The notes under the pieces: generated by a model | The model's database searches: none | Told to the model about the DNA's origin: nothing | What the model saw: only the letters and a program-made list of their open reading frames with translations | Made by a program: the position numbers and the translations under genes | Part shown: positions 1,782 through 11,690 of the stretch, piece after piece | Layout of the letters: each line of letters starts with the position of its first letter | Numbering within the stretch: position 1 is the first letter of the stretch | Source of the DNA: a phage | DNA: 64,000 nt | NCBI GenBank assembly: GCA_026209155.1 | Contig: GCA_026209155.1_3056.1 | Direction: 5' to 3' (one strand)

Positions 1782-4046
1782 TCATAATTTACAGGATGAA
1801 CAATCTTCAGCTTTTGGAGTTTCTATTTCATAATCATCAGTACCAGAACCATCACGGGTATTATGATAATAGAAATTTTTAATGCCATAATACCATCCGT
1901 ATAGCATGTCATCAATCATTATTGACATTGGAACCTTTCCTTTTGGAAAAATCTGCGGGTCATAGTATGTATTTGCTGAAGCTGATTGACATACCCATTT
2001 CAGCATAATAGCTACCTGTGTAAGATAAGGTTTATTACCTTTCTTAGCTAATTTCCACGTATAATCATATAGGTCTATGTTATGCTCAATATTGGGCACG
2101 ACTTGATTAAAGGAACCCTCTTTTGATTCTTTAACAGAGACTGGTCCACGTGGAGGCTCGATACCGTTTGTACTGTTAGAAACTTGGGAAGATGACTCAC
2201 ATGGCATAAGTGCTGATAATGTGCTATTACGGATGCCAAAGAGCTTAAGGTCTTCCCGCAGCGACGACCAGTCACAAACGTATTTTGGAGCTGCGATTTG
2301 GTCAATCTTTTTATTGTACCAGTCGATAGGTAATTCACCTCGAGACCAACGAGTGTCTGAATAATATTCGCAAGGTCCTTTTTCTTTGGCGAGCTTAATG
2401 GATGCTTTAATGAGTCCATACTGTAATCTCTCAAATAGTTCATGTGTTAAATCGTTGGCATCTTCATAAGAAGCAAAGTTACTTGCCAGCCAAGCTGCAT
2501 AGTTTGTAACACCTACACCGAGGTTACGACGCTTTTTAGCTTTTTCTGCTTCAGGAACTGGATATCCTTGGTAATCCAAAAGATTATCAAGAGCACGAAC
2601 TTGAACTTCTGCCAATTCATTAATTTTATCTTGGTCTTGCCAGTCAAAATTATCTAGTACGAATGCAGAGAGAGTGCACAATCCAATTTCAGCATCAGGA
2701 CTATTCACATCATTTGTTGGAATAGCAATTTCACAACACAAGTTACTCTGGCGAATAGGTGCCTTTTCACGAATAAACGGAGTATAGTTATTCGTATTAT
2801 CAATGAACTGTACATAAATCCTTGCTGTTCCTGAACGTTCAGTCATGAGCAATTCAAATAGTTCACGGGCTTTAATACGCTTTTTACGAATATTAGGGTC
2901 TTTTTCTGCCGCTTCGTATAATTCACGGAAACGGTCTTGGTCTTTAAAATAAGAATAATAAAGCTCTCCACCCATTTCATGTGGACTGAACAAAGTAATG
3001 TAGTCGTTCTTTCCAAAACGTTCCATCATTAGGTCATTCAGTTGAACGCCATAATCCATATGACGAATGCGGTTTTCTTCTACGCCTTTGTTATTTTTCA
3101 AAACGAGAAGATTTTCAACTTCCAAATGCCAAATAGGATAATAAGCAGTAGCAGCGCCGCCACGAATTCCACCCTGTGAACATGATTTAACTGCAGTCTG
3201 AAAATGTTTCCAAAAAGGAATAACACCGGTATGGCGTACTTCACCCATGCCAATCTTAGAACCTTCGGCACGAATCATACCAACGTTAATACCAATTCCA
3301 GCACGTTTGGAGATATATTCAACAATTGAAGCGGAAGCCTTATTGATAGACTTCAATGAATCTCCTGCCTCAATAACAACACATGAACTAAACTGTCGAG
3401 TCGGAGTACGGCAACCAGCCATAATAGGAGTTGGCAATGAAATCTGTCGAGTAGATACTGCTTCATAAAAACGGATAACATGTTTTAATCTATCAACAGG
3501 TTCGTCTTGATGCAATGCCATTCCAATAGCCATAAATGCAAACTGTGGAGTTTCATAAATTTGACCAGTGGTTTTATCTTTAACGAGATATTTTTCTTTT
3601 AATTGCATCGCCCCGGAATAAGTAAATTCCATATCCCGCTCGTGCTTAATTTTTGATTCTAAAAATGTAATTTCTTCTGCAGAATATTTTGACAACAATT
3701 CAGGGTCATATTTACCTTCATTTACACAGTAAGAAATATGGTCAATAAATGAACGTGGTTCATATTGTCCGTAAACATGCTTACGAAGAGCAAACATTAA
3801 ACAGCGTGCAGCTACATATTGATAATCAGGCTCTTCAACTGAAATAGAATTCGCAGCAGCCTTAATTACAATGGTTTGAATGTCATCAGTGGTCATTCCA
3901 TCACGGAGATATGATTTAATATTTTCATATAATTCATAAGGATCTACAGATGTTCCTTCGGCTGCCCAAGATAAAACTTTAATAATTTTTTGCGGGTCAA
4001 AGCTCTGAGAAACACCACTACTTTTGATAACATTAATTAATTGCAT
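1782..4046 (-). CDS. nrdA: Ribonucleotide reductase large subunit
   Basis: 754 aa, same length as T4 NrdA; class I RNR alpha motifs; end signature CSSCKL-like. Confidence 0.95.
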   Translation of the reverse strand: MQLINVIKSSGVSQSFDPQKIIKVLSWAAEGTSVDPYELYENIKSYLRDGMTTDDIQTIVIKAAANSISVEEPDYQYVAARCLMFALRKHVYGQYEPRSFIDHISYCVNEGKYDPELLSKYSAEEITFLESKIKHERDMEFTYSGAMQLKEKYLVKDKTTGQIYETPQFAFMAIGMALHQDEPVDRLKHVIRFYEAVSTRQISLPTPIMAGCRTPTRQFSSCVVIEAGDSLKSINKASASIVEYISKRAGIGINVGMIRAEGSKIGMGEVRHTGVIPFWKHFQTAVKSCSQGGIRGGAATAYYPIWHLEVENLLVLKNNKGVEENRIRHMDYGVQLNDLMMERFGKNDYITLFSPHEMGGELYYSYFKDQDRFRELYEAAEKDPNIRKKRIKARELFELLMTERSGTARIYVQFIDNTNNYTPFIREKAPIRQSNLCCEIAIPTNDVNSPDAEIGLCTLSAFVLDNFDWQDQDKINELAEVQVRALDNLLDYQGYPVPEAEKAKKRRNLGVGVTNYAAWLASNFASYEDANDLTHELFERLQYGLIKASIKLAKEKGPCEYYSDTRWSRGELPIDWYNKKIDQIAAPKYVCDWSSLREDLKLFGIRNSTLSALMPCESSSQVSNSTNGIEPPRGPVSVKESKEGSFNQVVPNIEHNIDLYDYTWKLAKKGNKPYLTQVAIMLKWVCQSASANTYYDPQIFPKGKVPMSIMIDDMLYGWYYGIKNFYYHNTRDGSGTDDYEIETPKAEDCSSCKL

Positions 4047-9437: not shown

Positions 9438-10343
9438 TTAAAGGTCATTCAAAAGGTCATCCAGGTCCGTGTCATCAGCACTAGATGAACTGCCAGAGCT
9501 TGAGCTCATAAAATCATCTTCAGTTTTTGTATTGAAGTCATCAACATTGAATGCATCCAAATCATCAGCAACTTTATCGGCTTTCTTAGCAGCCGTTGCC
9601 GCAGCACCACCCATAATAGCAGTTCCCATAACTTGACTGAACTTAGTGCTCAGTTCTTCAAACGATTTGAACTTATCTTTAGAAGTCATTTCAGAAAGGT
9701 CAACCATTTGTTCGAACAGTTCTTTCTGGAAAGATTTATCGTCAATGTTTGGAATCGCAGATTGATTCAGGAATTTAGATTCATCGTAGTTACTAAATCC
9801 AGAAACCTGTTTAACTTTCAGTACAAAGTTAGCACCTTCCCACGGACAAGTTACATCAACCGGAGTTTCACCCATTTCAACATCAACTGCAATCATCGCG
9901 TTGATTTTATCCCAGATTTTCTTACCGAAACGGTATTTAAATACTTTACCTTCGTTTTCTGGAGCAGCTGGGTCTTTTACTACAAGAATGTTAGCCCAGT
10001 AAGAAGTTTTACGTTTAACAAGACTGTACTCTTTATTGTCAGTGTTGTACAGATCATTTTTACTGATGTATTGACATACTGGGCAAGAATCATAATCACC
10101 ATGGGTAGATGAACATGTTTCAATATACCATTTACCATTTTTCTTGAAACCGTGATTTACAAGAATTGCGAATGGTGCTTGTTCATCATTTTTAGACGGA
10201 AGAAAACGAATTACTGCTTGACCGTTACCCGCATTATCGAGTTTCAGTTTCCACTCGCCTTTATCTTCAGAAGAAAAACCTTTATTGCCATTCAGTTTAG
10301 CCATTTGTGCAGCAAGTTCAGCAGTAGATTTACGTTTAAACAT
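9438..10343 (-). CDS. 32: Single-stranded DNA-binding protein gp32
   Basis: 301 aa, same length as T4 gp32; Zn-binding region [12 protein letters not shown]; acidic C-terminal tail. Confidence 0.95.
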
Positions 10344-10415
10344 TTTATTTCCTTTTTAATTTAATTTAATTTAATTAACAGTTGGTGCTATGACACTTTA
10401 CCTCATAGCTGGCAT
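10344..10415 (-). promoter_or_regulatory. Gene 32 translational operator: UUAAA-repeat leader plus upstream pseudoknot-like element
   Basis: Minus-strand ...GCCAGCUAUGAGGUAAAGUGUCAUAGCACCAACUGUUAAUUAAAUUAAAUUAAAUUAAAAAGGAAAUAAAAUG; matches remembered gp32 autoregulatory site. Confidence 0.65.
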
Positions 10416-11035
10416 AATTCGCAATACTCTGGGTCTTCGAGAGGTATCCAACCTGAGTTGAAATACTTTACCATCGATTTAGCAGTTGTATCAGTTATAT
10501 TTATATTACCTTTAACTCTTCGCCATCCAGGAGTTTTACCGTACAGATTAGAGGATAATAATAACACATAATTCTCGTAAGCAATATGAGATAATTTCCA
10601 AGACTCTATATTAGCTCGTGATGTTTTCCAAGGTCTAAAATCGTCACGGTTCATATAATTAGCCAATCTCATATGCTCTCTAACTTCCGGGTCTTTGGCT
10701 GGATGAGTTTCACCACTCACACCAAATCCACCACCAGCATATACCAGATTAAAATAGTCTGGATTATCTCTGGCATTTACTTCAAGTTGGTATTTTCGTT
10801 CTGCTTCAATAACATCCAAGTCATCATCAATTTGAATTATTTTAACGCTCGGTTTTTGAAGCATTAGCGCATTCAAAAATCTTTTTTGTTTACATGAGCT
10901 CCAGTATTCCTTTCCGGAAGAGTCATATATTATTCCGTTCTCAAATGAGCAATTTAATTTACTACCGATATAGTAGTATGGCGGAGTCTTATTTTTGACA
11001 CGGTCTTCAAATGTAAACCAATATACTATATTCAT
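10403..11035 (-). CDS. Free-standing GIY-YIG homing endonuclease, segG-like (between genes 32 and 59)
   Basis: N-terminal VYWFTFEDRVKNKTPPYYYIGSK (GIY..YIG spacing); locus equals T4 segG position; paralog of ORF 62077..62964. Confidence 0.65.
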   Translation of the reverse strand: MNIVYWFTFEDRVKNKTPPYYYIGSKLNCSFENGIIYDSSGKEYWSSCKQKRFLNALMLQKPSVKIIQIDDDLDVIEAERKYQLEVNARDNPDYFNLVYAGGGFGVSGETHPAKDPEVREHMRLANYMNRDDFRPWKTSRANIESWKLSHIAYENYVLLLSSNLYGKTPGWRRVKGNINITDTTAKSMVKYFNSGWIPLEDPEYCELCQL

Positions 11036-11036
11036 A

Positions 11037-11690
11037 TCAATACTTACAAGATTTCACAGTTTCAATGAAAACACTTTTAGCTTTCTGTGAATCAATATTT
11101 AAAATTTTTCTATAAGCCTTTAACTTTATAGAATAATTATTCCAGACTAAATTATCAGTCTGTTCATCATGTTTATCAATTATATTTAAAAACGAATCAA
11201 GCAAGATAAACGTCTCAAACGAAATTATGTTCGATTGCAGAAGTTTAAAAATATAACTTGATTGAACTTTTGGATTATACTCAAAGATTTCTTTAAAAGC
11301 AGAAACTTCAACTTTTTTACTAAAATAATAAATGTTGCGAATATCTTCTTCAAACTTAAACTTAATTTGCTTTAAGCGTCCGATATATTCACGATAAAAC
11401 ACAAGTGCATCAGCGTCAGAGATGTCACCAATCCAAGCATCTTGGTTAGCAACCAAATTACTTATAAAGATTAAAGCAAGTTCCTTTAATTTATATTTTT
11501 CTGATAACTTCTGGAAAAAATACTTATCCCTTCGCTTTTGATAAGCGGCATCAGACACCCGCATGCACCAATTATACTTAATTACATCATACTTTCCATT
11601 CATATGCTGTTTTATCATTAAGTATAATTTATAAACTGATTTACCATCAATGTATCTTTCACCACCAGCAGGCATGCGGAGTTTAATCAT
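11037..11690 (-). CDS. 59: Helicase loader gp59
   Basis: 217 aa, same length as T4 gp59; N-terminus MIKLRMPAGGERYIDGKSVYKLYLMIKQHMNGKYD. Confidence 0.88.
   Translation of the reverse strand: MIKLRMPAGGERYIDGKSVYKLYLMIKQHMNGKYDVIKYNWCMRVSDAAYQKRRDKYFFQKLSEKYKLKELALIFISNLVANQDAWIGDISDADALVFYREYIGRLKQIKFKFEEDIRNIYYFSKKVEVSAFKEIFEYNPKVQSSYIFKLLQSNIISFETFILLDSFLNIIDKHDEQTDNLVWNNYSIKLKAYRKILNIDSQKAKSVFIETVKSCKY

Follow-up and report, generated by a model that had tools for sequence, protein, structure and literature searches.

The window, by which we mean the whole 64,000-nucleotide stretch of phage DNA analysed (contig GCA_026209155.1_3056.1 of GenBank assembly GCA_026209155.1), carries genes 59, segG and 32 in this order, and the whole locus lies on the minus strand. 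Gene 59 for the helicase loader (11037..11690, minus strand) was recognized by the Pfam families T4_Gp59_N and T4_Gp59_C at E of about 1e-53. Gene 32 for the single-stranded-DNA-binding protein, which is both the repressor and the regulated product (9438..10343, minus strand), was recognized by an ORF call and the Pfam family gp32 at 2e-66. Between them lies segG, a free-standing gene for a GIY-YIG homing endonuclease of 210 aa (10403..11035, minus strand), with an ATG start and a TGA stop. The 210-aa open reading frame that an earlier note on this DNA had claimed between genes 59 and 32 is present, both neighbours being placed by Pfam. The ATG of segG stands 1 nt past the stop codon of gene 59, and the 633-nt gene ends with the codons UGC CAG CUA UGA for Cys-Gln-Leu-stop.

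A megablast comparison with GenBank phages gave 366 matching records, mostly T4-like phages of Escherichia, Shigella and Yersinia, and the full segG interval was covered in 141 of them with identity of up to 99.9%. Judged by its sequence, the window is from a T4-type phage (Tequatrovirus) with the canonical T4 layout of gene 59, segG and gene 32. T4 itself has the same order, 33-59-segG-32. Its segG (ORF 32.1) and gene 32 operator (NC_000866 147909..148541, with a 55-nt spacer) agree with those of the window in the SegG protein (100%), the segG 3′ end, the pseudoknot and the 12-nt overlap described below. The window differs from T4 in one extra UUAAA unit, one fewer A before AUG and a few gp32 substitutions. 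As a free-standing gene, segG comes and goes among close relatives: 141 phage records have it, 357 have the T2-type junction, and T2 itself is without it.

The protein of the open reading frame is identical to T4 SegG (NP_049855) at 210 of 210 residues. T4 SegG is listed as an active GIY-YIG endonuclease inserted between genes 32 and 59, with gene 32 as its target (PMC2988022). On the other hand, the HMM search for GIY-YIG, which the earlier note had proposed as a check, finds nothing, and the assignment is rescued only by the identity to T4 SegG and by fold comparison. In Pfam the open reading frame has no GIY-YIG match even at E ≤ 10, in NCBIfam it has no match, and phmmer finds no chain for SegG among all PDB chains. 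When a 26-member SegG family profile was aligned with T4 I-TevI by hhalign, the probability was 0.3%, that is, nothing was found. PHROGs places the open reading frame in phrog_7504 ‘homing endonuclease’ at 1e-133, with weaker matches to other homing-endonuclease PHROGs. The family is small, with 29 homologues among 5.8 billion proteins, and a precomputed Pfam domain is found in none of the 29. Because the family is invisible to the GIY-YIG models of Pfam and NCBIfam, automated annotation needs name transfer or structure to recognize it.

The α/β catalytic fold of GIY-YIG enzymes is found in the N-terminal domain of SegG by fold comparison. T4 EndoII (4.6), the UvrC N-terminal domain (4.5) and Eco29kI (4.0) rank lower in this comparison. 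In Foldseek, too, the top rank is I-TevI (1ln0), although non-significant with E = 1.3. In an alignment of 26 homologues, Y5 is near-invariant, and R12, Y22-I23-G24-S25-K26, E79 and N96 are invariant. The family has no Arg at the usual spacing after YIG, its invariant basic residues being R12 and K26. The aligned residues appear to fit a divergent GIY...YIG...E...N pattern. The GIY-YIG assignment thus rests on the fold, the motif residues and the identity to an experimentally characterized T4 enzyme, and the claim of a segG-like GIY-YIG endonuclease stands by the last of these together with the N-terminal fold. The C-terminal residues of SegG are variable across the homologues in the alignment.

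Downstream, the gene 32 mRNA contains an H-type pseudoknot (10387..10414, minus strand), the nucleation site of the gp32 translational operator, which was assigned from T4 identity, covariation and literature. In stem 1, the 5′ arm UGCC (10414-10411) pairs with the 3′ arm GGUA (10402-10399), and loop 1 is a single A (10410). In stem 2, the 5′ arm GCUAUGA (10409-10403) pairs with the 3′ arm UCAUAGC (10393-10387), and loop 2 is AAGUG (10398-10394). The 5′ arm of stem 2 ends with the UGA stop codon of segG (10405-10403). The string GCCAGCTATGAGGTAAAGTGTCATAGCACCAAC, which had been quoted for the pseudoknot, is found at 10413..10381, exactly where it had been placed, and the stop codon does lie inside it. 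That the segG 3′ end and a regulatory RNA share nucleotides is also borne out: as read from the sequence and by a geometric scan, the overlap is 12 nt long (10403..10414, minus strand) and consists of the stem 1 5′ arm, loop 1 and the stem 2 5′ arm. Over the final 120 nt of segG and throughout the pseudoknot the sequence is that of T4, and alignment with the T4 32-59 region, another check that had been proposed, finds the segG 3′ end, pseudoknot and overlap the same base for base. Stop-codon readthrough stimulated by the pseudoknot was considered and rejected, as the UGA lies inside the stem rather than upstream of it and a UAG follows in frame five codons on.

The pseudoknot is followed by an unstructured A/U-rich operator leader (10344..10386, minus strand), in which five UUAA(A) units and the Shine-Dalgarno sequence AAGGAAA were located from the sequence and the T4 alignment. 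The gene 32 ATG begins at 10343, leaving 43 nt from the pseudoknot 3′ end to AUG, as compared with 31-52 nt in relatives. The layout is that of T-even operators, with a pseudoknot about 30-50 nt 5′ of AUG and then a UUAA(A) leader that covers the Shine-Dalgarno sequence. A role of the A/U-rich leader in cooperative gp32 binding has been reported (PMC535899). Because of one extra UUAAA unit and one fewer A before AUG relative to T4, the spacer from the segG stop to AUG is 59 nt rather than 55 nt.

Near-identical phages differ in how many UUAA(A) units they have: there are five in the window, four in T4, and three in T2, HY01, 121/2022-2B and an IMG/VR locus (L003), so that the window leader has two more than T2. 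This variation looks like repeat slippage within the region that gp32 coats cooperatively, and it could shift the set-point of gp32 repression.

Whether the pseudoknot is real was judged by folding and by comparison. The nested minimum-free-energy fold of 10341..10420 by ViennaRNA, a model of nested pairs that leaves pseudoknots outside, contains, of the two stems, only the second, of 7 bp; its z-score is −0.87, no better than shuffles. In a geometric pseudoknot scan written for the purpose with a shuffle null, a pseudoknot of this geometry with at least 11 pairs appeared in 72 of 2000 shuffles (3.6%) of the 111-nt region, making the geometry of the single sequence only modestly unlikely. Main reliance was placed on covariation, for which the comparison set comprised 80 IMG/VR loci encoding gp32 relatives and four loci encoding SegG homologues.

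The same architecture was found at the same place in 11 distinct sequence types, with a stem 1 of 4-5 bp, a single-A loop 1 and a 7-bp stem 2. In all of them stem 2 abuts the stem 1 3′ arm, and the pseudoknot stands 31-52 nt before AUG. When the 11 types were aligned, 96.2% of the cells were paired, compared with 25-49% in controls slid by 1-3 columns. Compensatory changes on both sides occur in 8 of the 12 pairs and in both stems. The covariation score is 0.71 versus at most 0.17 in the slid controls, and none of 500 shuffles reaches 0.71. The stem 1 arm inside the segG open reading frame covaries freely with its partner. We regard this comparative sequence evidence for the gene 32 pseudoknot as decisive. 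The folding check that the earlier note had proposed therefore divides: the minimum-free-energy fold by itself recovers one stem, and the pseudoknot is carried by covariation.

An Rfam 15 scan of 10200..10600 gave only chance-level hits (E ≥ 2.4), all far below gathering scores, so there seems to be no Rfam family for the gene 32 pseudoknot. The T2 pseudoknot has an NMR structure, 2TPK (PMC3014915), and footprinting and genetics have established that gp32 nucleates on the pseudoknot and spreads along the UUAAA leader (PMC535899, PMC3014915). For gp32 binding and autogenous repression we draw on the literature on T4 (PMC535899), which has the identical pseudoknot sequence although a shorter leader than the window. 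The proposal that the pseudoknot and the UUAAA leader together make the gp32 translational operator holds, with identity to T4 through the pseudoknot and with the support of covariation. In RB69, too, the gene 32 operator has a pseudoknot and a UUAAA-type leader with experimentally shown autoregulation, although RB69 lacks segG and has a longer footprint and a divergent leader (PMC535899).

Pseudoknots of this kind are also found where segG is absent. GenBank phages were searched with a 63-nt T2-type query made of CUGACC, A, GCUAUGA, GGUCA, UACAUCG and UCAUAGC in this order, plus flanks. The T2-type pseudoknot was intact in 357 phage records, and among the 40 matches listed of these 357, none overlapped an annotated feature. 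In the T2 record, the entire gap between genes 59 and 32 is 99 nt and holds no segG, the pseudoknot standing in this intergenic spacer. T2 shares with the window the H-type topology, the 7-bp stem 2 (GCUAUGA/UCAUAGC) including the UGA, the 1-nt loop 1 and the downstream leader, whereas its stem 1 is 5 bp (UGACC/GGUCA) rather than the 4 bp of T4, and its loop 2 is UACAUCG rather than AAGUG. Because the UGA triplet is part of stem 2 in T2 as well, the segG stop codon is a pre-existing operator triplet.

Beyond T2, the IMG/VR loci L013, L016/L027, L018, L019 and L021 have covarying pseudoknots in the spacer that follows the gene 59 stop, which is about 60-95 nt long. L013, whose gp32 is 82% identical, has the loop 2 AAGUG of T4 and a stem 2 with a compensatory change from U-A to C-G. 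The possibility that the T4-type pseudoknot is a by-product of segG was rejected, since L013, with a spacer too short for segG, shares the loop 2 AAGUG and, almost unchanged, the stem 1 3′ arm. The gene 32 pseudoknot clearly pre-dates segG and is independent of it.

Incidentally, one record named as T4, LR597657.1 (Escherichia phage T4_ev240), has a T2-type pseudoknot between genes 59 and 32, and nothing is annotated where it matches. This phage may have arisen by recombination or may be an evolved derivative.

The four SegG homologues looked up (64-48% identity) all sit at the 59/32 junction of other T4-like phages. Their open reading frames are at 2501-3136 in L082, 2501-3139 in L083, 2501-3127 in L084 and 2501-3145 in L086. 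Three of them stop upstream of the local pseudoknot, by 23 nt in L082, 22 nt in L084 and 4 nt in L086. In L083, there is no clear pseudoknot in the 44-nt spacer between the segG homologue and gene 32. The insertion site seems conserved among SegG homologues, with the exact right-hand junction varying. Since pseudoknots occur where segG is absent and homologues stop 4-23 nt upstream of theirs, the overlap is a lineage-specific junction, and it constrains only the last 12 nt.

Two further observations were made on L083, a metagenomic T4-like contig. In the region 3075-3186, a 12-bp candidate pseudoknot lies wholly inside the segG-homologue open reading frame, 61 nt from AUG, but it is AU-rich and could be due to chance. 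A second putative homing endonuclease open reading frame of 231 aa (1172-1867), with the Pfam domain I-TevI_DNA-bd, lies between genes 33 and 59.

The earlier note had concluded that the sharing of nucleotides would constrain loss of the mobile gene. If so, losing segG would damage the control of gene 32, the overlap would be kept for that reason, and the selfish gene would be stabilized. The 12-nt overlap is indeed real. With a T4-type pseudoknot query that included the segG tail, every one of the 141 matching records covers at least 80% of the query; no record has a partial match, and the number of records with the T4-type junction equals the number with full-length segG. Furthermore, the pseudoknot is invariant in five sampled segG-containing genomes, and a related argument for retention has been published for promoters embedded in segG (PMC2988022). 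However, the linkage of segG to the T4-type junction is explained well enough by co-conversion during homing.

Other evidence speaks directly against such a lock. As only 12 of the 633 nt are in common, the operator would survive deletion of the remaining 621. The 357 records above have a pseudoknot of a working type, the one solved by NMR in T2, with no annotated gene beneath it among the 40 matches listed. In three other phages the homologue at this junction ends before the pseudoknot, the stem 1 arm inside the open reading frame varies with compensatory changes, and recombination with a segG-less relative could swap the whole region cleanly. We therefore consider it very unlikely that the overlap locks segG in place. 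What the earlier note said of the gene, the RNA and the overlap was right, and the constraint on segG loss that it drew from them is weak.

A GAAUUA (10415..10420, minus strand) inside segG, 4-5 codons before the stop, is homologous to the ‘-71’ processing site of RNase E in T4 by a count on the T4 alignment, and is a predicted site in the window. It stands at −75 here instead of −71 because of the longer leader, and the homologous position is 4 nt upstream of the pseudoknot. A review puts the T4 pseudoknot 67 nt before the start codon and the RNase E cut at −71 (PMC3014915). On the T4 alignment our pseudoknot starts at −67, equal to the figure in the review, which validates the mapping. Every gene 32 transcript is cleaved by RNase E at −71, after which the upstream piece is quickly degraded (PMC3014915); the segG transcript is likewise processed by RNase E (PMC2988022).

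The middle and late promoters of gene 32 are situated within segG (PMC2988022). In the window, the T4 late-promoter consensus motif TATAAATA (10498..10505, minus strand) is found inside segG, upstream of gene 32, although this motif occurs at chance-level frequency. A sigma-70 promoter scan of the region was at chance level, and such a scan is uninformative on T4 middle and late promoters. Antisense to the pseudoknot, a sigma-70-like site (10390-10418, plus strand) has ATGACA, a 17-nt spacer and TG-CATAAT with 10 of 12 matches, and is probably meaningless.

In the segG-containing sample, substitutions cluster in two codons just 5′ of the invariant pseudoknot (window 10415-10423), where TGC GAA is changed to TGT AAA, TGT GAA or TGC AAA. 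In position these codons correspond to the RNase E −71 site.

Directly upstream of the pseudoknot, inspection by eye showed a MotA-box-like TGCTT(T)A and, after a 12-nt spacer, TATAAT, both in T2-type genomes and in L084 (about 3110-3150 in L084, and about 1915-1950 in L004). The MotA-like box of L084 overlaps the last codons of the SegG homologue, and T2-type genomes also carry TATAAATA directly upstream of the pseudoknot, both again by eye. With promoter-like motifs abutting the pseudoknot, primary transcripts would start almost at its 5′ edge, which is the 5′ end that RNase E makes in T4.

We considered a regulatory coupling, in which ribosomes ending segG at the UGA would unfold the pseudoknot and relieve gp32 repression, while bound gp32 would block completion of SegG, so that the two expressions are linked. 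Since the stop codon is inside the stem 2 5′ arm, this is geometrically possible. In addition, the cassette contains no promoter for segG itself, which is expressed from polycistronic messages running on into gene 32 (PMC2988022). However, RNase E separates the two 4 nt upstream of the pseudoknot and the fragment carrying segG does not last, as described above. With the gene 32 promoters inside segG, most gene 32 mRNA would escape translation across the overlap anyway. Moreover, related phages have SegG homologues that do not overlap the pseudoknot, and any coupling would therefore not be a conserved feature. Such two-way coupling is barely conceivable to us.

A looser version would hold that the overlap is more than a junction scar, in that termination within stem 2, or gp32 sitting over the stop codon, couples SegG synthesis to the level of free gp32. 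We consider this extremely unlikely. If true, synthesis of SegG would be limited to times at which single-stranded DNA titrates gp32, recombination-dependent replication being one example.

Very probably, instead, the overlap is a side effect of the way in which the cassette came to be joined in the T4-type locus, and is tolerated rather than being a device that locks the endonuclease in place. SegG would cut gene 32 of segG-less relatives such as T2 in mixed infections and would be copied in with flanking DNA; its cleavage and homing are known from crosses of T4 with T2 (PMC2988022). The right-hand junction of the cassette falls, in the T4 lineage, within the gene 32 operator, which was there before segG. 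The three final sense codons of segG and its UGA thereby double as the stem 1 5′ arm, loop 1 and the stem 2 5′ arm. The operator would work as before, gp32 presumably binding the pseudoknot first, then spreading cooperatively over the UUAAA-rich leader and blocking its own ribosome-binding site.

From the literature we infer that segG ribosomes seldom cross the operator, because most gene 32 mRNA either begins at a promoter within segG or is cleaved by RNase E 4 nt short of the pseudoknot. Variable as they are, the C-terminal residues of SegG could accommodate the operator sequence. With little translation across the operator and with C-terminal residues that are not conserved, the overlap would be tolerated.

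How the T4 junction was formed may also be considered. Borjac-Natour, Petrov and Karam (2004) stated the overlap explicitly in a figure legend (Fig. 3) and in the Discussion, and suggested that the pseudoknot was there first, segG being a chimera that had been extended into it (PMC535899). In the alignment, T4 SegG ends at the same column as several homologues and is not longer than they are, so it is not obvious that the frame was simply extended into the operator. The comparison suggests that the T4 junction could have arisen by loss of a 4-23-nt spacer with replacement of the last codons, which would fit at least as well as the 2004 extension idea.

The idea that signals of a neighbour embedded in an endonuclease gene favour retention is not new either. 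Edgell, Gibb and Belfort (2010) proposed for T4 segA, segE, segG, mobB and mobC that a neighbour's signals in the endonuclease open reading frame may favour its retention (PMC2988022), and for segG the published argument is built on the gene 32 promoters within it rather than on the pseudoknot (PMC2988022). In that case the promoters are well inside the open reading frame, whereas here the RNA structure is at its extreme 3′ end and constrains far less. Both the overlap and the embedded-signal idea of retention are therefore already known, from 2004 and 2010, respectively.

As a discovery the overlap carries little weight, this being a textbook T4 locus. Its value is one of calibration: the overlap limits only 12 nt and is specific to the T4 lineage, and the pseudoknot through which gp32 controls its own synthesis is older than segG and independent of it.
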